64,000 nucleotides of DNA from an uncultured Gammaproteobacteria bacterium (lineage in GTDB: Bacteria; Patescibacteriota; Microgenomatia; Daviesbacterales; UBA10151), in assembly GCA_964551605.1 (NCBI GenBank), contig CAZKCV010000002.1, positions 8,500 through 72,499 on the forward strand. Direction: 5' to 3'. Shown one piece after another: positions 4,587 through 53,413 of the stretch. The notes under the pieces are model-generated. The model made no database searches. It worked only from the letters and a program-made list of their open reading frames with translations, and had not been told where the DNA came from. The translations under genes and the position numbers were made by a program. Position 1 is the first letter of the stretch. Each line of letters starts with the position of its first letter.

Positions 4587-5222
4587 ACTAAACTTTTTGG
4601 CAGGCCAGAAGATAATTAATAACCTAACCGGTATCGCAATAGCAGAAAGCACAAAAGTAATCCGTCCCAAAAACCGCTTGATTACCAAAACTCCTTCTAC
4701 CTGTTCCATTAGATAAAAATGTCCGACAGCTAACCCTAGCGCCAGGTAACTGGTAATTTGGACAGTTTTCCAAGTCTTTGGGCTTAAAAGTTTTAGAGCC
4801 TTTTTGCTGGAGGTTAAAGTTACGAGGAAAAGAATAGTAATTGCGGCCAGTCCTGCCAGGATGCCGGGATATTTAGGATGGGAGTAGTCAACAAACCTTA
4901 ACAGATTAAATTTGTAAAAATAAATAAAGACTAAAGTCACATGAGCTAAAGCTGCTAAAAAGCTGGTAATACCCCAAAATTTACGGTGGGCTTTTAGAAG
5001 ATTCAAACCGGGAAACAATTTGCATATGGGGCCGACTAAGAGGGTAATCGCCAGAAGGCTGATGCTTAAAAGCCCGCTTGTTTTGACCATCTCCGGGGGG
5101 GTGATTTTGCCGAAATTATAAAAAAGAAAAAAAGCCAGGAAAAGCATAATAGGTACCCCTATGTCAAAAAGGCGACGGGTAGAGTTTTTTTCTACATGAT
5201 AATGATAGGGATGGTTTTTCAT
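4536..5222 (-). CDS. ferric-reductase-like transmembrane (MsrQ/YedZ-like) heme-binding membrane protein, tentative
   Basis: 228 aa, ~6 TM. Conserved His in TM helices (KAHRKFWG...ALAH; AVGHFY), typical of bis-heme ferric reductase-like TM domains. Confidence 0.4.
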   Translation of the reverse strand: MKNHPYHYHVEKNSTRRLFDIGVPIMLFLAFFLFYNFGKITPPEMVKTSGLLSISLLAITLLVGPICKLFPGLNLLKAHRKFWGITSFLAALAHVTLVFIYFYKFNLLRFVDYSHPKYPGILAGLAAITILFLVTLTSSKKALKLLSPKTWKTVQITSYLALGLAVGHFYLMEQVEGVLVIKRFLGRITFVLSAIAIPVRLLIIFWPAKKFSLLKSVRNRGVQILKSL

Positions 5223-5275
5223 TGACAGAGAAGTGTCTATATAGATAGTATGATAATAGAAAGAGTTTTGTCAAA

Positions 5276-6082
5276 ATGGATGATCCTGCCCCAAAAGATA
5301 ACTTACTAAATCTTTCCGGAAAAGTAGCCATTGTCACAGGTGGAGCTTTGGGGATTGGTTTTGGAATCGCTTATAGATTGGCTGAAGCCGGGGCAAAGGT
5401 AATGATTGCTGACTTTAAGGAGCAGGAAGCGGCAGCAGCAGTCCAGAAATTAACGGAAAAAGGTTGGACGGCAAAAGCGGTCAAGGTAGATATTTCCAAT
5501 GAGGCGGATGTTTCTAGAATGGTCTTAGAAACAGTTAGTGTTTTTGGAGGATTGGATATTTTAGTCAATAATGCCGGAATTTATCCTTCTATTCCGGTAC
5601 TGCAGATGAGCGTGGGGGATTTTGACCGGGTGATTAATGTAAATTTAAGAGGGGTTTTTCTTTGCACCAAATATGCCTCTGGACAGATGATTAAAGCCGG
5701 AAAAGGGGGCAAGATTATCAATGTTACGTCAATTGATGCGCTTCATCCTTCATCCATCGGACTTGCTCATTATGATGCTTCAAAACACGGAGTGTGGGGT
5801 TTTACCAAAAATGTAGCCTTAGAGCTCGCTGTGCATAAAATATGGGTTAATGCCATAGCTCCGGGAGGTATTGCCACGGAAGGGGTTAAGGCCATGCAGG
5901 CACAAGCGCCTACCGGGGTAGATATGTCTAAAGTGCTGGAAAGTTTTTTGGCTAAAATCCCCATGCACCGGATGGGGGAGCCGGATGATATTGGTAAAGT
6001 AGCCCTCTTTTTAGCTTCAGACATGTCTTCTTACATGACCGGCTGCCAGATTGTAGTGGACGGCGGGGTATTACTGAGTTAG
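5276..6082 (+). CDS. SDR family oxidoreductase (FabG-like)
   Basis: GKVAIVTGGALGIG cofactor motif, NNAG, catalytic Y-x3-K (YDASKHG). Confidence 0.8.
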   Translation: MDDPAPKDNLLNLSGKVAIVTGGALGIGFGIAYRLAEAGAKVMIADFKEQEAAAAVQKLTEKGWTAKAVKVDISNEADVSRMVLETVSVFGGLDILVNNAGIYPSIPVLQMSVGDFDRVINVNLRGVFLCTKYASGQMIKAGKGGKIINVTSIDALHPSSIGLAHYDASKHGVWGFTKNVALELAVHKIWVNAIAPGGIATEGVKAMQAQAPTGVDMSKVLESFLAKIPMHRMGEPDDIGKVALFLASDMSSYMTGCQIVVDGGVLLS

Positions 6083-6220
6083 CCGGAGGTGAGACAAATT
6101 ATAAGTTTGGACAAGAAACATGAGCATCAGACGGTATAAGATTTATATATATGAGTCATGATTCTAAAAAAGTTGCTTTTTCATGTACATAGTGGTACTA
6201 TGGGTTAATTAGTTTAGCTT

Positions 6221-7810
6221 TTGAGCAGAAGGCTAATTATGCAGACCATTGAAATGGATGGGGTAAAAGTTGAGAATCCATCAAACTTAAATCCGTCCGA
6301 CGGGCAACCGCCTGATTCCTCCGTGGCGTCACAACATCATCGACGGTCCCACCCTTGGGCTAATAAACTGATACGGTGGGGTTTAGGGTTTTTAACAGTG
6401 GCCGCCCCTGCAGCTGATACCGGTATTAATATTTCCCAGGCCACAGCCCAGGAATTTTCCAAACAACAACCAGTCCATACCTTAGTACAGGAAACTCCTT
6501 CACACGGCACAGTGGCTGAAGATGTAGAAAAAGTTAAATCCTTAATCAGTGCTACTGAATCACTAAGTAATACCATGGCTTTAATTAATATGACAGAGGA
6601 GGAGTTAAAAAATAACCCCCTGGATGTCCGGGGCAAGGGATATCTTAAAGATGCGGATGGCAATGTTACAGTACAATTCCGCCTGAATGGGGACAGGTCC
6701 ATAGACAGGTCCAGAGTAGATCCGTCTACTTCCCAGCTTGAAGCCTACCTGCCTTATGCCCAAAACACCCCTGTGGAATATCCCCAGGCCTTTGCACTCC
6801 ATCCCGAAGGCAGAATAGCAATTCAAGGTGGGAGCGAACAGCCTGGTGGTCTAGAAACCAGACTAGCAATAAATCTTAATTTTGACAGAAATGGCAATAC
6901 TTTTGAAGGAGTGCCCTGGACATTTGGGGCAGGAACCGGGGTGGTCACTGATATTATTTTCGTCCCCCAGATTAATAAGTGGCTGGTGACGGTCAACAGT
7001 ATTGAGAAAAACACCAGTATCTATATTATGACTGTGGGAAATTCAATAATTGATACCAATATTATTCCAACTAATCTTAAAGATAGAGTTGCGGGAGGAT
7101 TAACCACGGCTGCGTATGATGCCTCCAGCAATAAACTAACAGCTTATTCGGCTGGTTCGGCAGATATAATAGGCGGCTTGCTGGAATATGAAATTAATCC
7201 CCAGACAGGAGAGGCCAGCGTCAGGCAGCTGTTTCCGGATGCAGGCTTCCTGGATGGATTACTGGTGGAAAATGACAGCAGCGGGAATACCAAAACAGTC
7301 TATGCCAATAGTCCCAATCAGAGAGCATTTTATATTTTTGATGTAGTTAATGGGACTAGTAGAGCGGTCAATACCTCATTTAGGCAAGAGTTAGCAAGTA
7401 TTGATGGATTTTTAGATGCAAGATTTTACGCCACCAGAAAACTTAATGATACATTCATCTCCGCCGGTTATTATTTTAGGTCAACAGGGGTAGCAGGAGC
7501 GATTGTAATAACCTGGCGGGAGGGAGCGGGGCAAAACGCGGCTCCGGTCTTTCTCAGCAAACAAGTGGTAGCCTCAAGAGATGGAGAGGATAATCCCCTG
7601 ACTATTGTATATAACGGCCTGGAATTACTTAAGTTCGGTAATTCACCTGTGGCTTTGGCAAAGATTAACCCTTTAGGTGAAATGGCAGCTGCCATTGGCC
7701 CGGATGGTAAATTCAGCCCGGAGCGGTATTTTCCCAATAAAAAGGCTGAGCAAAGATTAACCCGGGTCTATCTACCTGCAGTTCACAAAAATTTTGGCGG
7801 ACACTGGTAA
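6221..7810 (+). CDS. hypothetical secreted protein (529 aa)
   Basis: Long ORF with no recognisable catalytic motif. Hydrophobic segment near N-terminus (LIRWGLGFLTVAAPAAD). Alternative start at ATG 6239 (MQTIEMDG). Confidence 0.5.
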   Translation: MSRRLIMQTIEMDGVKVENPSNLNPSDGQPPDSSVASQHHRRSHPWANKLIRWGLGFLTVAAPAADTGINISQATAQEFSKQQPVHTLVQETPSHGTVAEDVEKVKSLISATESLSNTMALINMTEEELKNNPLDVRGKGYLKDADGNVTVQFRLNGDRSIDRSRVDPSTSQLEAYLPYAQNTPVEYPQAFALHPEGRIAIQGGSEQPGGLETRLAINLNFDRNGNTFEGVPWTFGAGTGVVTDIIFVPQINKWLVTVNSIEKNTSIYIMTVGNSIIDTNIIPTNLKDRVAGGLTTAAYDASSNKLTAYSAGSADIIGGLLEYEINPQTGEASVRQLFPDAGFLDGLLVENDSSGNTKTVYANSPNQRAFYIFDVVNGTSRAVNTSFRQELASIDGFLDARFYATRKLNDTFISAGYYFRSTGVAGAIVITWREGAGQNAAPVFLSKQVVASRDGEDNPLTIVYNGLELLKFGNSPVALAKINPLGEMAAAIGPDGKFSPERYFPNKKAEQRLTRVYLPAVHKNFGGHW

Positions 7811-7825
7811 AACAAAAATAAATTT

Positions 7826-9853
7826 CTAAGGTAAAGTGGGATTAGCATTTTCCGGGATTGATCTTTCGTTGCCGTTGCTGTTCATAAGATAACCATAAGT
7901 TCCCCAGGTACGAGTTCCAAGGCCACTATAAAGTTCGACATTGAAAACAGGTTTAATACGTTGTGTAAGTTTGGTAATTGGTTCTGCATATAACACTCCG
8001 GGAATAGTAACCGGAAGCGGCTGCCACTGGGTTGAGTTACGGTAGTAAACATAATAATTCCCTTGATTAAGGGTTTGGCCGTTTATTGTCCTGGTTTTAT
8101 TGACGGATAAAAGCATAAAACCATTGTTGTTCCTGACATGATCCATCAGTTGTTGCAAATTGGCACCAGTGCCGGGGGAGCCGGCGCTTTGGGTGAATGC
8201 CACTCCTACCAGTGCAACATTATCAGGTGTAGCATTCTCTAAAGACTGGGCTATTTGTAGGGAGTTGTAGTATCCGCTGCCAGCTTGTGCTGCACTTAGG
8301 CCGCTGATGCCATAAGTCCCCCTTGTGTTATCGGCGCTAGTGCCTCTGGTAATTTGTAAACTTTTTAGTTGGGGAGCGGTAGTGGTACAGGTAACAGATC
8401 TGGGAGAACCGGGCAGGAGAGTATGGGTGCCGGAGCCGATATTAATGCCGTAGGCATAGATATTGTGGGATCTGCCGTCCCTAAGGGCATTAGCCGGAAT
8501 GGCATAAGAGAAACCATGGTTGGGATTGCCGCCGCATTGTGCTCCCACAGCTGCCTCTCTAACAACATTAGCCTGGGTGCTGGTTAAAGGGATACCTGCC
8601 CCGGCCGGACCGTCCGCATAGAAATCTACCCTTAGGGAAGCATTGTAATTATCCCCGTCACAGGTCCAGCCGGTGATGGCCGCGCAAGTCCCGCCTTCCA
8701 GATTCCCCACCGGATTATAGGTGGCTTCCCCGTAAATCTGCAGGTTGGCCATATCTCCGGTTGCTGCATTGTAGCCGGAGGTGGGAGGATAACCCGGGGG
8801 AGAATAATAAAAAGTATTAAAGTAGGCCCGGCCAGAAGTATAGGCATTCCGGGTATTGATGCCGTTGATAAAGACATTGCCCTTGCCGCAGAAAGGATTA
8901 TCCAGCCTGACCTGGGAGCCGGAGGTATTGGTGCCGAAAAGGTCAATCTGGCGGGGTTCATTGGGCCGGTCGCAGTTATACCTGCCCTGTTCCCAGTAGC
9001 CGCCTTCTTCAGTATCTCGGCCCTGATCCAGGTGGGATTGCTGGATGGAGAGGAAATACTGCTGGCCGGGAGTAACCGAATTGCCGGGCAGGTTAACTTC
9101 CAGATAATTCCCGCTATTATCCGTTCCCTGCCAAGAGACAGTTTGGGAAGTCCAATTGGGTCCGGTATATTTTGTGGGTAGGCTGTTGGGCGGGGGGCTA
9201 CTCCAGTCAAAGGTAGACTCGCCAAAGATTACACCGCTGCCATATGGTACGCCCCACTGTGACCATTCATCCCGGAGACTCTGGTCAGTAAGCATTTGGT
9301 AAGCCCGGGTCCATTCAAGGGCCCGGGGGCAGGGCCGCTGGGGATCATTAATGATCATTCTTCTTAAGAATAAAGCTTCAATGGAGTTCTGGTCCACTCC
9401 GCAAAGGCTGGCCAAATCATTGGCTAACTCACCACCGATAAAAATCCGTTCCTCCCTGGCTAACATCGGCCCGGTAGGAGAAATAACCGTGGTCCGGCCT
9501 TCATAGCCAAACGGGCTGGATTGTCCTTCGGGAGAAGTAGCCACTTGAGTAGAAGCAGTTGGTTCTCCGGCAAATACAGCCACAGAAACTATCCCACCGG
9601 TGTTGCCTCCGGCATGGCCCAGTTTAAAGTCGGTTAACCTGATCCGGTTGACTTTGACCACTCCCGAAGGGGCGGCAAAGCTTTGGCCGGCCAGGTGGTT
9701 ATCGGTCCAGCCTGCCTCAGTAGTATTGCTGCCGGCCGGACCATTGCCCGGGAAAATTTCAATTTCAGCGGCTGAGGCCGGGGAGGGAAGAATAAGTAAT
9801 ATAAGTAATAAGAATAAACATGTAATGCTGAATAAAGCTTGAAGTTTTTTCAT
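7826..9853 (-). CDS. hypothetical large secreted/surface protein (Gly/Asn/Thr-rich)
   Basis: ORF 7826..9898. Start placed at 9853 (MKKLQALFSITCLFLLLILLILPSPASAAE), a classic signal peptide. No recognisable enzyme motifs. Confidence 0.5.
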   Translation of the reverse strand: MKKLQALFSITCLFLLLILLILPSPASAAEIEIFPGNGPAGSNTTEAGWTDNHLAGQSFAAPSGVVKVNRIRLTDFKLGHAGGNTGGIVSVAVFAGEPTASTQVATSPEGQSSPFGYEGRTTVISPTGPMLAREERIFIGGELANDLASLCGVDQNSIEALFLRRMIINDPQRPCPRALEWTRAYQMLTDQSLRDEWSQWGVPYGSGVIFGESTFDWSSPPPNSLPTKYTGPNWTSQTVSWQGTDNSGNYLEVNLPGNSVTPGQQYFLSIQQSHLDQGRDTEEGGYWEQGRYNCDRPNEPRQIDLFGTNTSGSQVRLDNPFCGKGNVFINGINTRNAYTSGRAYFNTFYYSPPGYPPTSGYNAATGDMANLQIYGEATYNPVGNLEGGTCAAITGWTCDGDNYNASLRVDFYADGPAGAGIPLTSTQANVVREAAVGAQCGGNPNHGFSYAIPANALRDGRSHNIYAYGINIGSGTHTLLPGSPRSVTCTTTAPQLKSLQITRGTSADNTRGTYGISGLSAAQAGSGYYNSLQIAQSLENATPDNVALVGVAFTQSAGSPGTGANLQQLMDHVRNNNGFMLLSVNKTRTINGQTLNQGNYYVYYRNSTQWQPLPVTIPGVLYAEPITKLTQRIKPVFNVELYSGLGTRTWGTYGYLMNSNGNERSIPENANPTLP

Positions 9854-9911
9854 TAGATTAATTATACTGATGGCTAGTCTTTTGTACAATCTACCCATTT
9901 ACCAATATCTA

Positions 9912-9959
9912 TTGACATAATCCCCTATTTATTATATGATATCCCCCTAGGAGGGATAT
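9912..9959 (+). promoter_or_regulatory. sigma70-like promoter (TTGACA-17-TATGAT) plus inverted repeat ATATCCC-N7-GGGATAT overlapping -10/RBS/start of csoR; putative CsoR operator
   Basis: TTGACA at 9912-9917, TATGAT at 9935-9940. Palindrome 9939-9959 with G/C-tract arms resembles known CsoR operators (GC-rich pseudo-palindromes). Confidence 0.5.
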
Positions 9960-10230
9960 GGCATACAGACCTAAAGATACAGAAGAGAGGATTTTACACC
10001 GGTTAAAAATAGCCAAAGGACACTTACAAAAAGTGATCCAAATGGTTGAATCCGGCCATTATTGTATTGATGTAATCCATCAATCCCAGGCTGTCCAACG
10101 GGCTTTGCAGGAAGCTGACGGGTTGGTTTTGGAAAACCATCTCCAAACTTGCGTGGTAGAACATATAAAAAATGGAGAAGCAGATACCTCAATTAAAGAA
10201 ATAATGAATGTGTTTAAGAAAAGCAATTAA
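9958..10230 (+). CDS. csoR: copper-sensing transcriptional repressor, CsoR/RcnR family
   Basis: 90 aa. Clear similarity to B. subtilis CsoR (RLKxxxGxLxxVxxMVE...YCIDVxxQxxAVQ...HLxxC...FKK), including the Cys/His/Cys metal-ligand positions. Confidence 0.75.
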   Translation: MAYRPKDTEERILHRLKIAKGHLQKVIQMVESGHYCIDVIHQSQAVQRALQEADGLVLENHLQTCVVEHIKNGEADTSIKEIMNVFKKSN

Positions 10231-10238
10231 CCTGTCTT

Positions 10239-10739
10239 ATGGGTGAAAAGAAGCTTATTATTATATTCGTTGCAATAACAGCCTTAATTCTGGGTGGCGG
10301 CATTTTTGTTCTAAGCAGTTCCTCTCCTCCTGCTAAAATTACTGCTTCCCAAAATGCCAAAGCAGAAGTTTCTGAGAGAACTTTTGATTGGGGTAATATT
10401 CCTTACAGTGGGGAGAAGGCAACTAAAACTTTCACTATTAAAAATAGCGGGAGTGATGCGTTGAAATTAAGTGGGATAAAAACCTCTTGTACTTGTACCA
10501 AGGCTCAAATTTTAATAGAAGGGAAAACCAGCCCTTATTTTAGTATGCATTCTACATCCGGTTGGGTGGGTGAAATACCACCCGGTAAAGAGGCAGAGCT
10601 GCTGGTTATTTTTGACCAGGCTTTTCATGGCCCTAGCGGGGTGGGACCGATTGAAAGGTTGATTTCTCTTAACACAAATGATGTCCAAAACCCCACAATA
10701 GAGTTTTCTTTAAAAGGAGTGGTGGTTAAAGATAAATAA
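10239..10739 (+). CDS. membrane-anchored hypothetical protein (DUF1573-like Ig-fold?)
   Basis: N-terminal TM, then beta-rich domain with CTCT motif. Located in the copper gene cluster. Confidence 0.45.
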   Translation: MGEKKLIIIFVAITALILGGGIFVLSSSSPPAKITASQNAKAEVSERTFDWGNIPYSGEKATKTFTIKNSGSDALKLSGIKTSCTCTKAQILIEGKTSPYFSMHSTSGWVGEIPPGKEAELLVIFDQAFHGPSGVGPIERLISLNTNDVQNPTIEFSLKGVVVKDK

Positions 10740-10740
10740 T

Positions 10741-11676
10741 ATGAAAAAAACAAAAATACAGGGGATTTTGAATAAAGCAGTGCCTTTGTGGATGGTGATT
10801 GTGATTGTCTTAAACTCCACCATGGTAATGGGGTTTGCCCAGTATTATTTTTTAAGGCAGGAGATTCAAAGGAACCTTCAGGAACTGGCTAAAACCACCC
10901 AAAGTCCCGAGGAGTTAGTTCAGGTTTTAAAACAGGAAGTGTTGCCGCAGGCAGGATATAAAACCTCCTTAAAATGGAAGGATTTAGGGAAGCGATTAGT
11001 GGGGGCGGGAGCAATTGATAAGAAAAAGTATGAAGAAATTTTTGTTTCAGAAGCAGACGGGCAGGATCATATGAAATATCTGGATGGCAGTTGGGAAGAA
11101 AACATGGTCATTAATGAAACAAACTCCCGCTTTATGGTTAATACACTTTGGGCCCTGGGACTTGCTAATAAAAGCAAAGTATTAGATGAAGGTCAAATGA
11201 AAACAGGTGAGACCCCGACTGAGAATTTTGCTTCTACCGGAGGCTGGACTCTGGGGGTAAAGCCGGTTATGGAAATCTATTCTTCAGCCGAGATTATTCC
11301 GCTGACACCAGAGCAGCAGGAATTGGTAAAAAAGATTGCCGAAAATGTTTTCCGGCCTTGTTGCGGCAACTCAACAGCTTTCCCGGACTGTAACCACGGT
11401 ATGGCCGCCTTGGGTTATATTGAGTGGGCTGTTTATAATGGTCTGCCTGAAAACCAGATTTATAAAGATTTATTGGCCTTTAATACTTTTTGGTTCCCGC
11501 AAAATTATGTTGAGATGGCAGTTTTCTTTGATAAAGCCGGCACTAAGTGGAAAGATGTAAATCCTCAAATGGCTTTAAGCCGGGATTATTCTTCCGCCCA
11601 GGGTGCAGCTAAGATTAAGCAATCGATCCAAAATGTACCGGGATTACAAAACCAGGGAGGAGGCTGTGGTGTCTAA
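10741..11676 (+). CDS. membrane-anchored Cys-rich hypothetical protein
   Basis: 311 aa, N-terminal TM. Cys cluster RPCCGNSTAFPDCNHG and C-terminal GGGCGV. No known family recognised. Confidence 0.45.
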   Translation: MKKTKIQGILNKAVPLWMVIVIVLNSTMVMGFAQYYFLRQEIQRNLQELAKTTQSPEELVQVLKQEVLPQAGYKTSLKWKDLGKRLVGAGAIDKKKYEEIFVSEADGQDHMKYLDGSWEENMVINETNSRFMVNTLWALGLANKSKVLDEGQMKTGETPTENFASTGGWTLGVKPVMEIYSSAEIIPLTPEQQELVKKIAENVFRPCCGNSTAFPDCNHGMAALGYIEWAVYNGLPENQIYKDLLAFNTFWFPQNYVEMAVFFDKAGTKWKDVNPQMALSRDYSSAQGAAKIKQSIQNVPGLQNQGGGCGV

Positions 11677-12519
11677 ATGGGAATGGAAAATGTCTTGTTT
11701 CAAATTTCTTTGATAGCAGCTTTTGTGGCCGGAATGGTGGCCCTGTTTGCCCCTTGTTGCATCACGTTTTTGTTACCAGCCTATTTAGGCAGTGTATTCA
11801 AAGAAAAAGAGAAGGTTATTCTAATGACCTTGGTATTTGGGGCCGGGATCTTTGTCGTGCTTTTGCCGGCTGTTTTAGGGGTTGCTTTGGTTTCAAAATT
11901 TCTCTTCCGCTACCATGATCTGATTTATATAGTAGGTGGTGTAATTATGCTGGCAGTAGCAGTCACCACCTTTTTGGGAATTAAGCTGCCGATGCCTAAT
12001 TTAAGCGGTGTTAATTCCAGCGGCAAAACCGATGTTGTTTCAATTTTTACCTTGGGGATTGTGTCCGGTATTACCAGTGCCTGTTGCGCCCCGGTCTTAA
12101 TCGGCATTATGACTTTGACCCTTTTATCCCCCACTTTCTTTGGGGCCTTGCTGGTAGGCGGGATGTATGTGTTGGGGATGGTAGTACCACTGCTTTTAAT
12201 TGCACTTTTTCTCTCCGATAAGATGCCTAAGTTTATCTTTTTAAGAAAGCCGATTTTAGATTTGAAAATCTTTGGTAAAAGCTATGCGGTGGTAATGAGT
12301 AATTTGATTGCAGCTGTTGTTTTCTTGATTACCGGGATACTGGCTTTAGTCTTGACAATGACAGGGAAGCTATCTGCGGAGAATATGGATGCATTTACTA
12401 AAACCATTACTAATGCCTTAGGCAGTGTTAATGGGATGTTGGGGAATAATATTTTGATTAATGTATTGTTTGTGGGGGCATTAGCAGCTTTTATTTTTTG
12501 GGTGTCAAAAAAAGTGTAG
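11677..12519 (+). CDS. CcdA/DsbD-family thiol-disulfide transmembrane electron transporter-like protein
   Basis: TM1 motif FAPCCITFLLPAYLG closely matches the CcdA SPCVLPLYPAFL signature. Second Cys pair in a later TM (ACCAPVLIG). Confidence 0.6.
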   Translation: MGMENVLFQISLIAAFVAGMVALFAPCCITFLLPAYLGSVFKEKEKVILMTLVFGAGIFVVLLPAVLGVALVSKFLFRYHDLIYIVGGVIMLAVAVTTFLGIKLPMPNLSGVNSSGKTDVVSIFTLGIVSGITSACCAPVLIGIMTLTLLSPTFFGALLVGGMYVLGMVVPLLLIALFLSDKMPKFIFLRKPILDLKIFGKSYAVVMSNLIAAVVFLITGILALVLTMTGKLSAENMDAFTKTITNALGSVNGMLGNNILINVLFVGALAAFIFWVSKKV

Positions 12520-12543
12520 TATGGATTATGAGGGGGTGAGAAT

Positions 12544-12888
12544 ATGGCAATAAAAAATAATGGTAATAGTCCGGTCGCTTATCTAATAATAGCAGTATTG
12601 GTTGGTGGTTTAATTGGCTTTTTTGTTGGTCAAAATAACAGACCATTTTCAGCAGGTTACATGAACCAAACTGCCTCTATGATGCGTGATAACGGTTCCA
12701 ATATGATGCAAATGGGAAAGATGATGATGAACTCCGGTCAGATGATGCAGCAAAAGGGTCAAACATACGATGATCAGGAAATGATGCAGAACGGTAAGGA
12801 GTTGGAAGAGAATGGCTCGATGATGCAAAACAAGGGTGATGGCATGATGGAACGAGGTAACGGCATGATGCAAATGATGGGACAATAA
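12544..12888 (+). CDS. membrane-anchored methionine-rich repeat protein (putative Cu(I)-binding)
   Basis: N-terminal TM, then ~70 aa of MMQ-x-G type Met repeats (MMQMGKMMMNSGQMMQQKG...GMMERGNGMMQMMGQ). Sits between the CcdA-like gene and copA. Confidence 0.5.
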   Translation: MAIKNNGNSPVAYLIIAVLVGGLIGFFVGQNNRPFSAGYMNQTASMMRDNGSNMMQMGKMMMNSGQMMQQKGQTYDDQEMMQNGKELEENGSMMQNKGDGMMERGNGMMQMMGQ

Positions 12889-12906
12889 TCGAGAAAGGAG
12901 GTAAAA

Positions 12907-13170
12907 GTGTTAAACGCAAAAGTTTTTGCGAATGCAGCTGCTGCGGTAATGGCTATTTGGGTAGTTGTTTGTGCTCTATTGGCATACACAGCACCGGATT
13001 TATTATTTGCAGTTTCAGCGTCCTGGACGCATACCATTAATCTGGAAGCGGTCAGGTCAACCTTTAACCCAAATCCGGTTTCATTAATTTTGGGATTTGT
13101 AAGTGCAGTAGGATTAACTTGGGTGACAACATACGGGGTAATTTGGTTATATAACCGTTGGGTAAAGTAA
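12907..13170 (+). CDS. small 2-TM membrane protein, hypothetical
   Basis: 87 aa with two hydrophobic helices and its own RBS (AGGAGG upstream). Confidence 0.35.
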   Translation: MLNAKVFANAAAAVMAIWVVVCALLAYTAPDLLFAVSASWTHTINLEAVRSTFNPNPVSLILGFVSAVGLTWVTTYGVIWLYNRWVK

Positions 13171-13187
13171 TTGACTGAAAGGAGATT

Positions 13188-13550
13188 ATGTTAAGTATAG
13201 ATGAAATAGTAGTGGGTTTTTTCGGCCTTTTTGGGATAGTTTTTACCTTTTGGTTTTTTCTGATGAAAAAGGAAAAGGAAGTACAAACCCAAGGAGAAGT
13301 AGATATAACAGTGTCCGGCGGCTATTCACCGGAAGTGATTTCCGTGGCCCGGGGTAAAACTACGAAAATTAATTTTATCAGAACTGATCCGACTGATTGT
13401 CTGGAGGAGGTAGTGCTGTCTGATTTTAAGATCAGAAAACAGTTGCCGCTTAATAAAAAAGTCAGCATAGAAATTACACCGCAGAAAGCCGGGGAATTTG
13501 GGTACGCTTGTGGTATGAATATGTACCACGGAAAGATTGTGGTTAGGTGA
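13188..13550 (+). CDS. membrane-anchored cupredoxin-like small copper-binding protein
   Basis: N-terminal TM, then ~90-aa beta domain with Cys/Met/His ligands (TDC...[10 protein letters not shown]). Paralogous to the C-terminal domain of the 15747..16778 product. Confidence 0.5.
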
Positions 13551-15745
13551 TGGAAACGAAGATATTTCAAATTAAAGGAATGCACTGTGCTTCGTGCATC
13601 CGGGTGATTGAGAATTCCATTAAGAAGATCCCGGGGGTTAGCGAAGCTCTGATCAGTTTAGTAACCGAAAAAGCTACCGTGACTTTTGATTCATCTGCAG
13701 TTAAAGATGAACAAATTACCTCTGCTGTATCAAAAGTGGGTTATAAAGCCTTTCTGGAAGAAGAGGTAAGGTCGGAGGATGAAGAGAAAAAAGAAAAACA
13801 AAAAGAGCTTTTCAGCCTAAAAAAGAAAGCATTTATTTCTCTTTTTTTGGCAGCCTTAATTGTCTGGGGCAGCTTTCCTTTTTTGGAACAATTTGCTCCC
13901 CCGCTATTAAAAAACTTCTGGTTCCAGTTGATTTTGGCTTTACCGGTCCAATTCTGGGCCGGATTTATGTTTTATAAGGCTACACTTCCGGCTCTCCGGC
14001 ATCGGACAGCAAATATGGATACTTTAATTGCCATTGGTACTTCAGCTGCCTTTGGTTATTCCCTGGTAGCCACTGCTTTCCCGCAAGTAATCGCAAGCAC
14101 CGGGATTGAGCCGATGCCTTATTTTGATGTGTCAGCGGTAATTATTGGCTTGATTTTGCTGGGCAGGTATTTCGAAGCCAAAGCTAAAGCCGGCACCTCG
14201 GAAGCGATAAAAAAACTAATCGGTTTGCAAGCTAAAACCGCCCGGGTACTGTTGAATGGTAAAGAGGTGGATGTGCCGATTGATCAGGTAGTGATCGGGA
14301 ATGTTATCCGGGTGAGACCGGGAGAAAAAATCCCGGTTGACGGCAAAGTTAAAGAGGGGCAATCAGCGGTGGATGAATCAATGATTTCCGGGGAAAGTAT
14401 TCCGGTGGAGAAGCAAAAAGGAGATTTGGTGATTGGCGGCACCATTAATAAAACCGGGAGTTTTACTTATGAGGCTACTAAAGTCGGCAGTGATACCATG
14501 TTGGCTCAGATTATCAAGCTGGTCCAGGAAGCTCAGGCCAGTAAGGCGCCAATTCAGCGGCTGGTTGATTTAATTTCTTCTTATTTTGTGCCAATTGTCA
14601 TAATGCTGGCCATAGCTACTTTTACTATCTGGTATATTTTTGGTCCGAATCCGGCTTTCCTTTTTGCCCTTTTAAATTCAGTGGCGGTTTTAATTATTGC
14701 CTGTCCTTGTGCCATGGGACTGGCTACTCCGACTGCCATCATGGTAGGTGTAGGTAAGGGGGCAGAGCAGGGTATTTTAATTAGAAATGCCGAAGGCTTA
14801 GAGATCGCTCATAAGATAAATACTGTAATTTTTGATAAGACCGGAACATTAACAAAAGGTAAACCGGAAGTGACGGATGTTGTCGGTAATGTATTGCAAC
14901 TGGCTGCATCACTTGAGAAGGGATCTGAGCATTCTTTGGCAGAAGCCATCGTTAAAAAAGCTGAAGAAGATAAAGTTACCTTAAAAAAAGTAGATAAGTT
15001 TAAAGCTGTACCCGGGCATGGTGTGGAAGGCCGGATTGATGGAGAGTTCGTAGTTTTAGGAAACCGCAGGTTAATGAATAGGGAAAAAATCAAAATTAAT
15101 GAAAAAGAGGTAGAAAAGCTGGAGAGTGAAGGTAAAACCGTGATGATGCTTGGAGTGGCCGGGAAACTAGCGGGATTGATTGCGGTGGCAGATACTGTCA
15201 AGGAAACTTCTAAAAGTGCAATTAAGACACTGTCTCAAATGGGGATAGAGACGGTCATGATAACCGGAGATAACCAGCGGACTGCCCAGGCTATAGCTAA
15301 GCAAGTAGGCATTAAGAGGGTGTTAGCAGAAGTCCTGCCGGATCAAAAAGAAGCAGAAGTAAAAAAGATTCAGGCAGAGGGTAAGGTGGTAGCTATGGTA
15401 GGGGATGGGATTAATGATGCCCCGGCCCTGGCTGCCTCAAACATAGGTATTGCCATGGGGTCCGGGACTGATGTGGCAATGGAGGCTGCAGGCATTACAT
15501 TAGTAAGTAAGGATTTAAATGCTGTTGCAAGTGCTATTACCCTTTCCAAGAAAACCATGAGGACAATAAAACTTAACCTTTTCTGGGCTTTTGGGTATAA
15601 TATAACTTTGATTCCAGTTGCCATGGGAGTGCTATATCCTTTCTCCGGGATTTTATTAAATCCCATTTTAGCTTCAGCCGCCATGGCAATGAGTTCTATA
15701 TCAGTTGTTAGCAACTCTTTGTTGCTAAAGAAAGTGAAAATATAA
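13547..15745 (+). CDS. copA: copper-translocating P1B-type ATPase
   Basis: N-terminal HMA domain ([12 protein letters not shown]), CPC motif ([11 protein letters not shown]), [15 protein letters not shown]. 732 aa. Confidence 0.9.
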
Positions 15746-15746
15746 T

Positions 15747-16778
15747 ATGGATCTTTGGATAGTATTTTTAACCGGTTTAACAGTTGGAGGAGTTAGTTGC
15801 ATGGCGGTGCAAGGGGGGTTACTGGCATCCACCATTGCAGCCAGGGAAGAAGAAGATATCCGGGCAGGTGTTAATCATAAGCATACAGTTTGGCCTACCT
15901 TGGCTTTTTTAGCTACCAAGTTTATTGCCTATATAATCTTAGGATTCATTCTGGGTAGTTTTGGCTCGGCCCTGGCTCTATCTGATGGTGCCAGAATTGT
16001 GACGCAGATGCTGGCTGCCTTGTACATGATTTTGGTAGCGCTGAATCTTTTAAATGTCCATCCGATCTTTAGGTATGTGATTATTCAGCCGCCTCGGTTT
16101 TTAACCCGAATGGTCAGGAATCAATCCAAAAGTAAAGATTTATTTGCCCCGGCCTTTTTAGGAGCCATGACGGTTTTTATCCCCTGTGGGACTACTCTAG
16201 CTATGGAGGCTTTTGCCATCTCTTCCGGCAGCCCTTTTTTAGGTGCTGCCATCATGGGGGTATTCGTCCTGGGGACTGCCCCGTTATTTTTCGGGCTGGG
16301 GTTCTTAACCACCATTTTAGGTGATGCATTCAGAACCAAGTTTTTAAAAATAGCCGGGGTAGTTGTACTGTATTTAGGGATTACCTCTTTAAACGGAGCT
16401 TTGGTGGTAGCCGGCTCCCCCATTAATCTACAAACCATTGCTGATAGCTCCCCTATTCAGATAGATTTAGACGGAGGAGGAGAAGAGCAAACAGGGCTTG
16501 AAGTAGTTGGTGGCGTGCAGGAAGTAGATGTTCAGGTTTTGCCCGGCGGCTACAGTCCCGATTATGTTCAGCTTCAAGTTGGTGTGCCTGTTCGCATGAC
16601 TTTAACTGCCGGTAGCAGAATAGGCTGTGCCTCTCAGTTTAGGATTCCCAGTTTAGGGATAGCCAGGAATTTGGGACCAAATGAAGTAACTACTATTGAA
16701 TTTACTCCTGAAAAGAAGGGCAAAATAATCGGCACCTGCTCAATGGGAATGTATTACATGATTATGGAGGTAGTTTAG
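15747..16778 (+). CDS. polytopic membrane protein (Cys in TM1/TM4, DsbD_2/CcdA-like?) fused to C-terminal cupredoxin-like domain
   Basis: TM Cys motifs GGVSCMAVQGG and FIPCGTT. C-terminal 90 aa align with the 13188 product (GGYSP...C...CSMGMYYM vs GGYSP...C...CGMNMYHG). Confidence 0.5.
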   Translation: MDLWIVFLTGLTVGGVSCMAVQGGLLASTIAAREEEDIRAGVNHKHTVWPTLAFLATKFIAYIILGFILGSFGSALALSDGARIVTQMLAALYMILVALNLLNVHPIFRYVIIQPPRFLTRMVRNQSKSKDLFAPAFLGAMTVFIPCGTTLAMEAFAISSGSPFLGAAIMGVFVLGTAPLFFGLGFLTTILGDAFRTKFLKIAGVVVLYLGITSLNGALVVAGSPINLQTIADSSPIQIDLDGGGEEQTGLEVVGGVQEVDVQVLPGGYSPDYVQLQVGVPVRMTLTAGSRIGCASQFRIPSLGIARNLGPNEVTTIEFTPEKKGKIIGTCSMGMYYMIMEVV

Positions 16779-16993
16779 TGAAAAAGAAATTTAAGATTAC
16801 CGGCATGCACTGTTCTTCCTGTGCCATGACTATAGATATGGATTTGGAAGACCTGGAAGGGGTAAATAAGTCCCAAACCAGTTATGCCAAAGCAGAAACA
16901 GAAGTAGAGTTTGATCAGGGTAAGATCACTGATGATCTGATTCTCCAAACAATCAAAAAATCCGGCTACGGTGCATCTCCTGTTGATTTTTAA
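16778..16993 (+). CDS. copZ: copper chaperone CopZ (HMA domain)
   Basis: 71 aa with GMHCSSC metal-binding motif. Confidence 0.8.
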   Translation: MKKKFKITGMHCSSCAMTIDMDLEDLEGVNKSQTSYAKAETEVEFDQGKITDDLILQTIKKSGYGASPVDF

Positions 16994-17025
16994 GACCATA
17001 CCCTATACCCTATACCCTATACCCT
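16993..17025. repeat. tandem heptamer repeat (CCCTATA)x4.5
   Basis: accataccctataccctataccctataccctaa immediately after the copZ stop. Confidence 0.8.
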
Positions 17026-17032
17026 AATTTTT

Positions 17033-18016
17033 ATGTTTGATTTAATCTCCATTGGTGATGCCAGGATAGATAATTTTGTTCACCTGCCAAAGGCGCATAT
17101 TAGTTGTACCCTCAATAAAGAAAAGTGTGAGATTTGTTTAAATTATGGTGATAAAATTCCGATTGATGATGTTAAATCTTTAACTGCCGGTAATAACAAT
17201 AATAATGCCATTGGGGCAGCCAGGTTAAAGATGAAAACTGCCCTTTTCGGAAACATCGGCGGAGATGCTAATGGCAGGATGATTCTGGAGCATCTGAAAG
17301 AAGAAGGGGTGGATTTAAGGTATATGGTGGTAAATAAAAATATTGCCACTGAACAGTCAATTGTCCTAAATTATCAGGGAGAACGGACAATTTTGGTATA
17401 TCATTATCCCTGGAATTATAACCTGCCGGATTTAGACAGGACTAAGTGGATTTATTTTTCTTCAGTATCTTTTTCGTTTTCTAAAACTCCGTTGGTTTCT
17501 CAAATTGAACACTATATTGAAAGAACCGGAGCGGGTTTAGTTTATACACCGGGAACCCACCAGCTCAATTTCGGGGTCAAAAAATATCCCAAACTGCTTT
17601 CTTTAAGTAAGGTTTTTATTGTCAATAAAGAAGAGGCCAAAAAGGTTTTGGGGATAGATGAGACTAAAAAGGTGGAGATTAAGAAACTGCTTCCCGGTTT
17701 GGCTGATTTAGGCCCCAGGATGGTAATAATTACTGATGGCGGTGAGGGGTCGTTTGGATTTGATGGGGAAAAGTTCTATCAGATAGGTCTGTTTCCGGCA
17801 GAGCTTCTGGAGATGACCGGAGCCGGAGATGCTTATGCTACCGGGTTAATAGCAGGATTATTTCATGGTAAGCAGTTACCGGAAGCAATGAGATGGGGTG
17901 CAGCCAACGGAGCGGCCGTGGTAGAAAAAATCGGCCCTCAGGAAGGGTTATTAACTTTAAATCAAATGGAAGAAAGATTAAAGAAAAACTTTAAAATTGT
18001 AGCAAAGGAAATCTAG
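17033..18016 (+). CDS. PfkB-family carbohydrate kinase (ribokinase-like)
   Basis: C-terminal GAGDAYATGLIAGL motif. Contains a poly-Asn insertion (GNNNNNA). Confidence 0.75.
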   Translation: MFDLISIGDARIDNFVHLPKAHISCTLNKEKCEICLNYGDKIPIDDVKSLTAGNNNNNAIGAARLKMKTALFGNIGGDANGRMILEHLKEEGVDLRYMVVNKNIATEQSIVLNYQGERTILVYHYPWNYNLPDLDRTKWIYFSSVSFSFSKTPLVSQIEHYIERTGAGLVYTPGTHQLNFGVKKYPKLLSLSKVFIVNKEEAKKVLGIDETKKVEIKKLLPGLADLGPRMVIITDGGEGSFGFDGEKFYQIGLFPAELLEMTGAGDAYATGLIAGLFHGKQLPEAMRWGAANGAAVVEKIGPQEGLLTLNQMEERLKKNFKIVAKEI

Positions 18017-19650
18017 TTTTTTACCAAGTGTTTTAGGGAATATTCTAAAGTTGCATCTGTCTTTTTGTGGGGGTTAAAGATATTTTTGGGGTCAAAAATA
18101 TCTTTGACTTCTTTAAATAATTCATAAACCTTTTTGCCGTACATTAGTTCCAGATAAGGTCCTCTCACCATACCGTCATTGTGTTCTGCTGTCATAGAAC
18201 CTTTGTATTCAAATACCAGGTCATAAACCTTTTTGGATAATTCCGGGATAGCCTGAATAACCCGGGGATCGTTCATGTCTACTAAGGGAATAATATGGAA
18301 ATTGCCATTACCAATGTGCCCGGCAATGGTATAAGTCATGAATTTTTTGTAGGGCTTTAAGATATGCTGGAGTTTTGGTAGAAATTCCGGTAAAAAGTGA
18401 GGCTGGACTACTACATCATCAATAAAAGGGGCAGTCCGTTTATTGCCGGCATGATGTCGGAATAGATTAAAACTTTCTCTTCTTACTGTCCAGTATTTTT
18501 TGGCATCATCTTCATTTCTGGTGAGTCTGGATTTAACATGGAAATGTTTAATGGCTTTCTGAGTGGTCAGGCATTTTTTAGTTACTTCTTCTTCGCTGTC
18601 CCCGGTAAACTCAGCCAGTAAAATCAGCTTGGGAAAGCCGTGTTTTATAGTCATGTATGCTTCTGGAATAAAATTCCAGGCTAGAGTGAGCAGGTTTTTC
18701 GGATGGATCACATTAAGGAGTTCTGCCCAGAATTTTACGGCAAAACGGAAAGTCTGGTCATCGTAGCTTTCAAAGCTTTCCGGGGCAAACTTTAAGACTT
18801 CATCGACCATTTCGCCCACATGCTTGAGGCTGTAGAGAAAAATTACCAGCATTTTGGCATGTTTTTTAGGCGGGATCAATTTGAATTTGATTTCCGTAAC
18901 TATGCCAAGGGTGCCTTGGGCCCCACAGATTAGCTTGCTTAAGTCAAAGGTGTGGCCGTCCCAGATTCTCCAAAGTAAATAGCCGGCAGAGTTTTTAGAG
19001 ACTTTTGGCTCGGCATTTTGGATTAATTCCCGGTTTTGGGTAATTAGTTTATACATTCCTCGATAGATCTCGCCTTCAAAATCATCTTGAGCAATCTTTT
19101 TGTCCAATTCCTCTTTATTGAGAGGTTCAAAGGTGTATTCATTACCGTCAGAAAGGATGACTTTGAGGCTTTGAACAAATTTTTCCGTCTGGCCAAAGAC
19201 TAATGTTTTTTCCCCGGCCGAGTTGTTATTGACCATGCCTCCCAAAGTACAGATTTCTCTTGAGGCCGGATAAGTTGGTAACAGCAGGTTATTTTTTAAG
19301 GTTTCCGGTTCAAAATCCCGGTAAAAAACTCCCGGTTGGACTGTTGCCGAGGCCTGATCAATCCTTAAAATCTGATTGAAGTGTTTGGTCATATCCAGAA
19401 TTAATGATTCACTGACAGCAGCCCCGGACATGTCGGTGCCGCCGGAGCGGATGGTTAAGGATAGATGCTGGTCAGGATTATTACTGACAAATTTGATTAA
19501 ATTTTTAATGTCTCCGTTGCTCTTTGGATAAATAACGGCCAGGGGTTGGATTTGAAAAAAGGATGCATCTTTACTGTATTTTTGCAGGGTTAGTTCATCG
19601 TCTATAACTTCTCCCTCTAATACCTTTTGCAGATCGTTTTTTAGGGGCAT
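18013..19650 (-). CDS. FAD-linked oxidase (GlcD/D-lactate dehydrogenase-like, FAD_binding_4 + C-terminal domain)
   Basis: 545 aa with an N-terminal PCMH-type FAD-binding region (IRSGGTDMSGAAV). Confidence 0.7.
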   Translation of the reverse strand: MPLKNDLQKVLEGEVIDDELTLQKYSKDASFFQIQPLAVIYPKSNGDIKNLIKFVSNNPDQHLSLTIRSGGTDMSGAAVSESLILDMTKHFNQILRIDQASATVQPGVFYRDFEPETLKNNLLLPTYPASREICTLGGMVNNNSAGEKTLVFGQTEKFVQSLKVILSDGNEYTFEPLNKEELDKKIAQDDFEGEIYRGMYKLITQNRELIQNAEPKVSKNSAGYLLWRIWDGHTFDLSKLICGAQGTLGIVTEIKFKLIPPKKHAKMLVIFLYSLKHVGEMVDEVLKFAPESFESYDDQTFRFAVKFWAELLNVIHPKNLLTLAWNFIPEAYMTIKHGFPKLILLAEFTGDSEEEVTKKCLTTQKAIKHFHVKSRLTRNEDDAKKYWTVRRESFNLFRHHAGNKRTAPFIDDVVVQPHFLPEFLPKLQHILKPYKKFMTYTIAGHIGNGNFHIIPLVDMNDPRVIQAIPELSKKVYDLVFEYKGSMTAEHNDGMVRGPYLELMYGKKVYELFKEVKDIFDPKNIFNPHKKTDATLEYSLKHLVKN

Positions 19651-19672: not shown

Positions 19673-20614
19673 ATGGATGCACTGCCCGAAATTTTTGACA
19701 CCATCATTATTGGCGGAGGAGCTTCAGGGACTTCAGCTGCAATTTATACTGTCAGGAAAAACCTAAAAGTTTTAATGCTGACTAAAGACCTGGGTGGTCA
19801 GGCAGCTTTGTCCGGAGATGTAGAAAATTACCCGGGCTACAGTATGATTTCCGGTGAAGAGCTGGCCAGAAAATTTAGAGCAGAGCTTTTAAACTTTGAA
19901 GGCCGGGGACTTTGGGTTAAAGACGGGGTGGAAGTTACTGATATATCCGGACAAGTGCCGAATTTTTTAGTTAAGACTTCTAAGGGAGAAGAATTTCACT
20001 CAAAAACCGTAATTATAGCTTCCGGTAGAACCCCCCGGATGCTCGGGATTTCCGGGGAAAAAGAACTTTTAGGCAGGGGTGTCAGCACTTGTGCCACTAA
20101 TAACTCCCCTTTTTTCAAAGATAAAGATGTGGCTGTGGTAGGTGGCGGAAACTGTGCTTTGGATGCGGCATTTTCCCTTATCAAAGTAGCCCGTTCCGTT
20201 ACCATTATCAATATTACAGATTCCCTAAAAGGTGATGAAGTGTTATTGAAGAATGTTACTTCTTCTGAAAAGGTAAAGGTTTTAAATGATCATGAAGCAG
20301 TGGAAGTTTTAGGTGAAGCATCCGTTGGAGGCATTAAAGTCAGAAGTAAATTAACTCAAAAGGAAGAGGTGCTGCCGGTATCCGGGGTATTTATTGAGAT
20401 TGGTTGGATTCCCTCAGCCCCCTTTGATAAGTTAACTGAAAAAAACGAAAAAGGGGAAATTAAAGTTGATCAATTCGGTGCAAGTTCCTTACCCGGTATT
20501 TTTGCCTGCGGAGATATTAATGATCAGGCCGGTGAACAGATTGTAATTGCTGCCGGAGAAGGTGCAAAAACCGGTTTAAAAGTGGCAGAATATATCTCCA
20601 AGCTTCCGGTTTAA
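19673..20614 (+). CDS. FAD-dependent pyridine nucleotide-disulfide oxidoreductase (thioredoxin-reductase-like, no canonical CxxC)
   Basis: IIIGGGASGTSAA, GGGNCALDAA, CGDIND motifs. The TrxB CATC redox motif is degenerate (CATN). Confidence 0.65.
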   Translation: MDALPEIFDTIIIGGGASGTSAAIYTVRKNLKVLMLTKDLGGQAALSGDVENYPGYSMISGEELARKFRAELLNFEGRGLWVKDGVEVTDISGQVPNFLVKTSKGEEFHSKTVIIASGRTPRMLGISGEKELLGRGVSTCATNNSPFFKDKDVAVVGGGNCALDAAFSLIKVARSVTIINITDSLKGDEVLLKNVTSSEKVKVLNDHEAVEVLGEASVGGIKVRSKLTQKEEVLPVSGVFIEIGWIPSAPFDKLTEKNEKGEIKVDQFGASSLPGIFACGDINDQAGEQIVIAAGEGAKTGLKVAEYISKLPV

Positions 20615-53236: not shown

Positions 53237-53413
53237 CCCCGCTTAAAAGCGAGGCCAGTTATCCAGGTAGTTCCAAATTGCTTTGAAACTCGGCGGCTCA
53301 CCGTCCTTTGTCCCTGGTAACTTGTTGTAGATGTATACTATCATAGACGCTCCCTAAATGCAAATTTAAGCATAAAAATGATAAAATAACCTCTGAAGGC
53401 TATTAAAATAATT

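Follow-up and report, generated by a model that had tools for sequence, protein, structure and literature searches.

A putative CsoR-repressed copper operon with cysteine-rich accessory proteins in a Candidatus Daviesbacteria genome

Here we describe ten adjacent genes, g1 to g10 in their order on the + strand (positions 9958-16993), in a stretch of 64,000 nucleotides (nt) of contig CAZKCV010000002.1, which we refer to as the window. Best protein matches assign the host to Candidatus Daviesbacteria (Microgenomates), a member of the Patescibacteria or Candidate Phyla Radiation (CPR). Proteins identical at 100% over the aligned part are encoded on an NCBI contig of 129,460 bp. On balance, and with moderate confidence, we read the locus as a single CsoR-repressed operon whose products deal with copper on either side of the cytoplasmic membrane. 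Judged from sequence, its most likely function would be the efflux of cytoplasmic Cu(I), coupled to a reductant-fed, cysteine-based module that handles copper or repairs thiols outside the membrane. An earlier note on this DNA, made without database searches, had listed ten genes and linked them to copper. All ten open reading frames (ORFs) were recovered on the + strand, with the domains of seven of them confirmed by Pfam, and the link to copper is borne out by CsoR, CopA, CupA and HMA proteins and by a CsoR operator.

Operon structure and regulation

The ten ORFs are separated by intergenic gaps of -4 to 24 nt in our ORF reading. The best promoter-like site within positions 9000-18500 is a sigma-70-like promoter at 9912-9940 (+), in which TTGACA and TATGAT boxes with a 17-nt spacer agree with the consensus at 11 of 12 positions; position 9912, where the region singled out in the earlier note starts, is the -35 box. 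A CsoR-type operator palindrome, ATATCCCCCTAGGAGGGATAT (9940-9960, read directly in the sequence), begins at the last base of the -10 box and covers both the ribosome-binding site (Shine-Dalgarno) and the ATG start codon of csoR, and the stretch between the -35 and -10 boxes contains AATCCCCTAT, which resembles a half-site. GC-tract palindromes of the form ATATCCCC-N-GGGGATAT or ATACCCC-N-GGGGTAT are found upstream of csoR in many related loci. In four loci where csoR is downstream (L017, L019, L062 and L079), it is the DUF1573 gene that has a similar palindrome, about 30 nt in front of it, and the accessory genes are thereby linked to CsoR control whatever the gene order.

The first gene, g1 (9958-10230, +), encodes a copper-sensing repressor of 90 amino acids (aa) that matches the CsoR family PF02583 (E=2.6e-23; 82.7 bits against a cut-off of 22.8). 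It carries Y35, C36, H61, C65 and E81, with the same residue numbers as CsoR of M. tuberculosis, in which Cys36, His61 and Cys65 are the Cu(I) ligands and Tyr35 and Glu81 form the second shell. Homologues of g1 keep C36 in 54/54 cases, H61 in 52/54, C65 in 41/54, Y35 in 50/54 and E81 in 52/54. Because this C-H-C set is present together with Y35 and E81, assignment of g1 as a CstR-type persulfide sensor, or as an RcnR- or FrmR-type regulator, was rejected. The protein is a predicted Cu-type CsoR, with a GC-tract inverted-repeat operator at its own promoter.

The locus had also been called an island. We found no compositional anomaly: the GC content of the operon is 0.40-0.45, like that of most of the window, and the term is therefore not apt. 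A horizontal-transfer island was rejected on this ground and because the right flank is conserved in the related locus L001.

The Cu(I) efflux core

A cytoplasmic Cu(I) efflux route is predicted to be complete within the operon. At its centre stands CopA (g8; 13547-15745, +), a 732-aa ATPase with one N-terminal HMA domain, which scores 637.9 bits against TIGR01511, the NCBIfam copper subfamily (cut-off 397), and contains the Pfam domains E1-E2_ATPase, Hydrolase and HMA. The motifs GMHCASC, CPC (residues 386-388), DKTGT, YN(x)4P and MxxSS, read in the translation, are the signature of Cu(I)-exporting ATPases of the P1B-1 type.

Directly upstream of copA, and overlapping it by 4 nt, lies g7 (13188-13550, +), which encodes a membrane-anchored cupredoxin-fold protein of 120 aa. 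It matches Cupredoxin_1 (PF13473; E=1.6e-24) and the pneumococcal Cu(I) chaperone CupA (PDB 2mry/4f2e; E=4.8e-24), with 38 of 88 aligned residues identical (43%). Residues C71, C108, M110 and M112 are invariant in 32/32 homologues and align with C74, C111, M113 and M115 of CupA, which form its two Cu(I) sites in a binuclear arrangement (PMC5646241). Thus, g7 is a predicted orthologue of CupA in which all four Cu(I) ligands are kept. Its transmembrane (TM) helix, at about residues 7-25, has an acidic N-terminal and a basic C-terminal flank, which predicts a cytoplasmic domain like that of CupA. No CupA-like N-terminal domain was found on g8 in the Pfam scan; the N-terminus of CopA is HMA. The stand-alone cupredoxin-like protein of the earlier note is therefore real, but it belongs to a described family.

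The last gene, g10 (16778-16993, +), encodes a 71-aa HMA protein of CopZ-like metallochaperone type with the motif GMHCSSC (PF00403; E=2.8e-9; 37.6 bits, cut-off 24.8). Against the NCBIfam CopZ models it scores 50-57 bits, below their cut-offs of 91-95 (best 56.7 against 95), and MerTP-type and MerT/CopZ fusion models score equally. It adjoins g9 wherever both are found, and in some related loci the g9-g10 pair is divergent from csoR. The core, noted earlier as csoR-copA-copZ, is canonical and consists of a Cu-type CsoR, a P1B-1 CopA and this CopZ-like HMA protein.

The g3 family

We found that g3 (10741-11676, +; 311 aa) is the founder of an uncharacterised Cys4-His family, with a signal anchor, a helical domain that the positive-inside rule places outside the membrane, and a flexible C-terminal GGxCG tail. 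There was no Pfam or NCBIfam match for g3, and a Pfam scan of 55 family members was likewise empty with E allowed up to 10. Even so, the family is large: a 90%-identity database gave 6169 matches, there are 492 clusters at 50% identity, and members occur in at least 585 species genomes. Its invariant residues are W137, R205, C207, C208, N210, D216, C217, N218, H219, G220 and C309, which give the motif RPCCxNxTxFPDCNHG and the C-terminal GGxCG. The AlphaFold2 (AF2) model of g3, with a predicted local distance difference test score (pLDDT) of 92.9, consists of a long helix at the N-terminus, a globular domain of helices and a disordered tail with C309. The g3 family is unknown to the family databases searched.

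Structural comparison yielded a lead rather than a finding. A Foldseek search of the g3 model against PDB returned nothing at E <= 0.001, and the sole return of a PDB profile search, All4940, was judged spurious. The CcmH family PF03918 was not matched by the 55 family members, even at E up to 10, and hhalign gave a probability of 0.4% against a 2-sequence CcmH profile and of 4.6% (P=0.0088) against a 33-sequence profile. The latter match, weak as it is, pairs residues 188-241 of g3 with helix 1, the Cys loop and helix 2 of CcmH. Residues C208, N210, D216, N218, A222 and G235 are in register, and C208 is the only Cys aligned with a CcmH Cys; the LRCxxC active site of CcmH is not in g3, which has RPCC instead. 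The best structural neighbour of g3 is thus, at most weakly, a CcmH-like subdomain.

Homologues of g3 occur as fusions with HMA (P0190), rhodanese (P0128 and P0151), BNR repeats (P0150) and a four-TM domain with a G.CP.CG motif, and some carry a lipobox (P0151) or a signal peptide. The fusion partners point to extracytoplasmic metal and thiol chemistry. In the long homologues (P0136, P0140, P0153, P0157, P0165, P0168, P0170, P0176, P0192, P0194, P0197, P0198, P0213 and P0261) the N-terminal domain of about four TM helices has conserved 'QTTT' and 'G.CP.CG…GLE.K' motifs and is unmatched in Pfam. Possibly it serves as a further membrane module for thiols or metal, in place of the CcdA-like gene.

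CcdA- and DsbD-type membrane proteins

The product of g4 (11677-12519, +; 280 aa, about seven TM helices) had been described as CcdA/DsbD-like. No Pfam match was found for the window protein itself, but the assignment stands by way of its relatives: three orthologues, 67-74% identical to it, score 25.8, 27.0 and 27.3 bits against PF02683 (cut-off 27.1; E about 3e-6), and the family profile matches CcdA of T. thermophilus (5vkv) over TM1-TM5 with E=1.7e-5. Some of the orthologues are named CcdA by NCBI. The protein has vicinal Cys pairs in TM1 (APC27C28…P34) and TM4 (C136C137AP139), and the first Cys of each pair aligns with a redox Cys of CcdA. C27, C28, C136 and C137 are kept in 59-60 of 60 homologues, and H80 is invariant. 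These matches support the assignment of g4 as a putative divergent member of the CcdA family.

The second such protein, g9 (15747-16778, +), joins a six-TM DsbD_2 domain (PF13386; E=3.3e-30; 105.9 bits, cut-off 24.9) to a C-terminal cupredoxin domain (PF13473; E=7e-9), in agreement with the earlier description of a second cupredoxin-like domain fused to a Cys-containing polytopic protein. The C-terminal domain is CupA-like (E=7.3e-10 against CupA) and has C294 and C331-S-M-G-M. Cys residues in TM1 (C18) and TM4 (C147) are kept in 28/28 homologues. As the positive-inside rule gives an outward N-terminus, six TM helices and an outward C-terminus, the CupA-like domain is predicted to be extracytoplasmic. 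No description of this domain fusion was found in the literature searches made.

Other accessory proteins

The DUF1573-like protein of the earlier note is confirmed. It is encoded by g2 (10239-10739, +), a 166-aa protein with an N-terminal signal anchor and an immunoglobulin (Ig)-like domain, which scores 47.7 bits against PF07610 (cut-off 26.1) and also matches PF22544. The domain is predicted to be extracytoplasmic by the positive-inside rule. Its motif S83-C84-x-C86-T87 is invariant in 77/77 homologues, and NCBIfam gives a weak match to its (seleno)protein family OS_HP2. Selenoprotein forms of DUF1573 have a UGC motif with U at the first Cys (PMC9312934), which marks the site as redox- or metal-active. 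The sole solved relative of g2 is 2qsv (E=0.0014). A free-standing DsbD-alpha domain was considered for g2 and found to be without sequence support, as the search gave 2qsv only.

The protein encoded by g6 (12907-13170, +; 87 aa, two TM helices) belongs to DUF5676 (PF18926; E=9.7e-15; 55.7 bits, cut-off 27.6), and its residues C22, W40 and H42 are invariant in 35/35 homologues.

Between g4 and g6 lies g5 (12544-12888, +), which, by composition and topology rule, encodes a 114-aa protein whose N-terminal TM helix is followed by a tail rich in Met, predicted to lie outside. The Met-repeat protein seen earlier is thus present, with 19% Met, but it is not a conserved component: g5 matches no Pfam or NCBIfam family, and a conserved role was rejected because it is missing from 80 related loci. 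In seven of the loci (L001, L004-L006, L009, L010 and L030) the same slot holds a Met/Gly-rich single-TM ORF of 32-48 aa. This ORF (MMGYGFGGMMNSG…LIDLILLGIWLWKQ), which lies between g4 and the DUF5676 gene, is conserved and unannotated and consists of a Met/Gly-rich N-terminal tail and one TM helix. In L001 it lies at about 9780-9940, where the recorded gene call uses another frame.

Synteny across related genomes

We retrieved 80 species-level loci with the g3 profile and searched their six-frame ORFs with the window proteins. The earlier note had proposed to check whether the gene order recurs in relatives, and it does: the order is the same in other Daviesbacteria and Levybacteria (L001, a Daviesbacteria contig with a g3 85% identical to that of the window, and L002, a Levybacteria contig), with variants across the 80 loci. 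Among these, csoR or copA was found in 69 (csoR in 50 and copA in 59), the DUF1573 gene g2 in 64, g4 in 55, the DUF5676 gene g6 in 32, cupA (g7) in 28 and g9 in 26. In 38 of the loci g3 is flanked by 5 kb or more on either side; of these, 37 have csoR or copA within 6 kb and 34 have copA. The neighbours of g3 are usually the DUF1573 and CcdA-like genes, and g2, g3, g4, g6, g7 and g9-g10 recur with csoR or copA across many classes of Patescibacteria and in some Chloroflexi, in an order that differs between lineages. Thus, with the exception of g5, the accessory genes are conserved in Patescibacteria and keep their synteny with csoR/copA there, and the observation that the earlier note named as refuting, a lack of conservation or synteny, was not made.

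In other lineages the cluster contains different inserted genes. In L050 and L053 an ORF between g4 and the DUF5676 gene, thioredoxin-fold or peroxiredoxin-like by eye, has a CxxxC (C-x-P-x-C) motif. A small membrane protein with a 'CCVHH' motif occurs as a gap ORF in L027 and as the N-terminus of P0171.

Proposed mechanism and alternative explanations

We propose that a rise in cytoplasmic Cu(I) would cause CsoR to leave its operator and so derepress the operon. Membrane-anchored CupA, and possibly the HMA protein too, would then hand Cu(I) to CopA, which would pump it out. On the outer face, the signal-anchored g2 (SCxC) and g3 (RPCC…DCNH…C-tail) proteins and the variable Met-rich peptide would present thiolate and thioether ligands outside the membrane. 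With these they would bind the Cu(I) that is pumped out, reverse the oxidation of thiols catalysed by copper, or do both. As a CcdA-type thiol-disulfide conduit, presumably fed by cytoplasmic thioredoxin, g4 would keep the outside cysteines reduced. A second conduit of the same design, g9, would use its TM1 and TM4 Cys to keep reduced the two Cys of the outward CupA-like domain that it carries, or would pass Cu(I) to that domain, with the g10 HMA protein as its cytoplasmic partner. The DUF5676 protein, with its invariant Cys, Trp and His, would be a membrane accessory without an assigned role. The thiol-redox function of this accessory module is a proposed one; a precedent is provided by ScsB and ScsC, which bind Cu(I) and pass it to CueP (PMC10907172).

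A more far-reaching version of this scheme is possible but doubtful. In it, g3 would represent a new class of extracytoplasmic Cys4-His protein active in copper and thiol-redox chemistry, possibly derived from CcmH, and would form, with DUF1573 and the vicinal-Cys CcdA protein, an unrecognised envelope copper-defence pathway widespread in Patescibacteria. The g9 protein would be a DsbD-style fusion that keeps its outward CupA domain reduced, and Cu(I) chaperones of cupredoxin fold would stand on either side of the membrane, the first to supply CopA and the second to take over Cu(I) from it.

Several points weigh against a reductant-coupled, CsoR-repressed operon. Pfam and NCBIfam domain scans found no thioredoxin fold in g3 or g2 and no ScsC- or TlpA-like partner in the operon. 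The window's g4, taken alone, lacks the Pfam match that its orthologues approach or reach, and its AF2 model (pLDDT 54) is too poor for a fold search. The absence of g5 from the 80 loci makes it lineage-specific. Topologies throughout come from simple hydropathy and the charge (positive-inside) rule, and the source organism is uncultured. A terminator scan of the window locus found no terminator-like site after g10, so that transcription may run on into pfkB. Furthermore, vicinal Cys pairs within TM helices are a typical trait of metal carriers of the MerT type, and g4 and g9 could therefore move Cu(I) instead of electrons.

This last point can be built into a rival explanation, in which g4 and g9 are MerT-like, Cys-lined carriers that pass Cu(I) across the membrane by thiolate ligand exchange, for export or controlled import. 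The part of MerP/CopZ would fall to g10 on the inside, and on the outside the CupA-like domain, g3 and DUF1573 would accept or donate Cu(I). This rival would account for the invariance of the vicinal Cys pairs of g4, for the constant pairing of g9 with g10, for the matches of g10 to MerTP and MerT/CopZ fusion models, which are as good as those to CopZ models, and for the existence of an HMA-g3 fusion; the clan of DsbD_2 (Pfam CL0292), which includes metal transporters, also counts in its favour. However, g4 aligns with CcdA over TM1-TM5 with its redox Cys in register, MerT homology was not detected for g4 or g9 in Pfam and NCBIfam scans, an ATP-driven CopA is already there for export, and a passive Cys relay would have no obvious driving force under copper stress. 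We consider these carriers unlikely. The least unlikely of the alternatives keeps the electrons and drops the dedicated copper binding: in a pure envelope thiol repair of Scs/DsbD logic, g4 would pass electrons to g3, as a CcmH-like reductase, and to DUF1573, and these would reduce or isomerise the non-native disulfides and sulfenic acids to which copper gives rise in surface proteins. The CcdA-like nature of g4, CcmH as the best structural neighbour of g3, the g3-rhodanese fusions, the thioredoxin-fold or peroxiredoxin-like CxxxC ORF seen by eye in the same slot of L050 and L053, and the Scs proteins, which are copper-induced reductases, are all consistent with it. Yet g3 is linked to Cu-ATPase genes in 34 of the 38 complete loci and is sometimes fused to HMA, which points to the metal itself, and its invariant Cys3-His cluster with a tail Cys resembles a metal site more than a CXXC redox centre. 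Since ScsC and ScsB themselves bind Cu(I), repair of thiols and binding of copper are not exclusive readings.

A role in cuproprotein maturation appears improbable. Under this explanation g2-g3-g4 and the outward CupA-like domain would deliver Cu(I) to an extracytoplasmic copper enzyme, and a CcdA-type reductant would ready the acceptor Cys, in the manner of TlpA-ScoI at CuA sites; CcdA, TlpA and Sco proteins are the precedent. In its favour, the genes that come after a long g3 homologue in L085 encode a Cupredoxin_1/COX2-like protein, a rhodanese and a ferric-reductase-like protein, and in L001 VKOR, DsbA and Ferric_reduct genes lie just upstream. But the module is encoded together with csoR and the pump in a single operon, whose CsoR operator is switched on by an excess of copper and not by its scarcity; the ORF and Pfam scan found no cuproenzyme gene in or beside the window operon; and the link in nearly all loci is to copA-type pumps. 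As for the view that the accessory ORFs are unrelated and merely happen to lie among cop genes, we give it almost no credence. The lack of conservation of g5 and the variation of gene order by lineage speak for it, but g2, g3, g4, g6, g7 and g9-g10 recur with csoR/copA and operators precede the module, and the synteny counts refute fortuitous neighbourhood for all genes but g5.

Genomic surroundings

The gap between the stop codon of copZ (g10) and the start codon of pfkB (17033) is filled by a heptamer array, (TACCCTA)x4, at 16999-17027. A slightly degenerate copy (GTACCCT x4) occupies the corresponding gap in L001 and L004, the closest relatives, and the array is absent from more distant loci. 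It has neither a hairpin nor a purine-rich ribosome-binding site.

Downstream of the operon, at a distance of 2.7 kb, 19673-20614 (+) encodes a thioredoxin-reductase-like flavoprotein, and a Pyr_redox_2 gene is found at the same place in L001. The protein reads CATNN where TrxB has its redox-active CATC; lacking the second Cys, it may not be a true thioredoxin reductase. Upstream of csoR, the window encodes two large secreted proteins of unknown function (6221-7810, +, and 7826-9898, -) with a GC content of 0.50-0.52, and in L001 the VKOR, DsbA-like and Ferric_reduct genes just upstream of csoR occupy 4560-6284.

Farther from the operon, 53253-53328 (-) matches the DUF3800-II RNA motif of Rfam with 60 bits (gathering score 43.2). 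A spike in GC content to 0.557 at 48723-49880 (-) corresponds to a 385-aa low-complexity protein rich in Pro, Ala and Thr, with a hydrophobic TM-like stretch by eye; it adjoins an ORF that, also by eye, resembles secA.

Comparison with known systems

The core of the operon is of the csoR-copA-copZ kind, g7 is predicted to belong to the CupA family, and the accessory part appears to be like Scs and DsbD-CueP in logic without being a member of either. With the csoR-copA-copZ operons of Firmicutes and Actinobacteria (B. subtilis copZA, L. monocytogenes csoR-copA-copZ and M. tuberculosis cso) it has in common a Cu-type CsoR with C-H-C ligands, a GC-tract palindromic operator at the promoter, a P1B-1 CopA with HMA, and an HMA protein with an MxCxxC motif. 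It differs from them in having seven more genes, in pairing the HMA protein with a DsbD_2 protein and not with copA, and in the addition of a CupA chaperone. With copY-cupA-copA of S. pneumoniae (CupA, PDB 4F2E) it shares a membrane-anchored cupredoxin-fold protein encoded directly upstream of copA and overlapping it. Here, however, the regulator is CsoR and not CopY, CopA has HMA in place of a CupA-like N-terminal domain, and a second CupA-like domain, predicted to face outward, is fused to the DsbD_2 protein.

The earlier note saw in the DsbD-like component the logic of Scs. Common to the operon and to ScsABCD and DsbD/DsbC-CueP are a link to copper, a reductant conduit of the DsbD superfamily and extracytoplasmic Cys proteins, but the likeness is one of analogy only. 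ScsB is a DsbD-like protein with eight TM helices, a tandem Ig alpha domain and a thioredoxin-like gamma domain (PMC10907172). That architecture was not found here: g4 and g9 have 6-7 TM helices and neither an alpha nor a gamma domain, and Pfam and NCBIfam scans gave no thioredoxin-family match in any of the ten proteins, and hence no thioredoxin-fold ScsC or ScsD. The alpha domains of DsbD and ScsB are Ig-fold thiol domains (PMC10907172); g2 is likewise Ig-like, with a CxC motif, but no homology to DsbD-alpha was detected. Control is by CsoR here and by CpxR in Scs. The host cell, moreover, is presumably monoderm, unlike the Gram-negative setting of Scs with its periplasm. From CcdA, g4 differs in its doubled Cys and an extra C-terminal TM helix. 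Compared with CcmH, g3 is four times larger, does not match PF03918 and, where CcmH has RCxxC, carries RPCC…C…H and a tail Cys. The context of both is copper, whereas that of CcdA and CcmH in cytochrome c maturation is heme.

The accessory ensemble had been thought to lack any described counterpart, which holds in part. CupA is known, and DsbD_2-type proteins (COG2836) have been noted in a CsoR meta-regulon, together with copA and CsoR sites (PMC4938975). Those proteins carry HMA, whereas in the window the fused domain is CupA-like and the HMA protein is encoded by a separate, adjacent gene. On the other hand, no mention of DUF5676 was found in the literature searched, and no link between DUF1573 and copper was found there by title or abstract; one paper has DUF1573 only in a table of selenoproteins (PMC9312934). 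Patescibacteria went unmentioned in the top-ranked literature matches for Patescibacteria, copper, CopA and CsoR.

If our reading is true, it would provide a testable function for several orphan families at once: the g3 family, DUF1573, DUF5676 and the DsbD_2-cupredoxin fusion. CupA has been described as confined to a few streptococci, and the reductant that resets its oxidised cysteines is unknown in the pneumococcus (PMC5646241). The predicted CupA orthologue indicates that this chaperone is not so confined, as it is found here under CsoR in a CPR bacterium, where it would serve an HMA-type CopA. Furthermore, g9, with its CcdA-like conduit fused to a CupA-like domain, is a candidate electron source for the resetting of oxidised CupA cysteines. 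More broadly, the operon suggests how bacteria with small genomes, presumably without a periplasm, may shield their surface thiols from copper.

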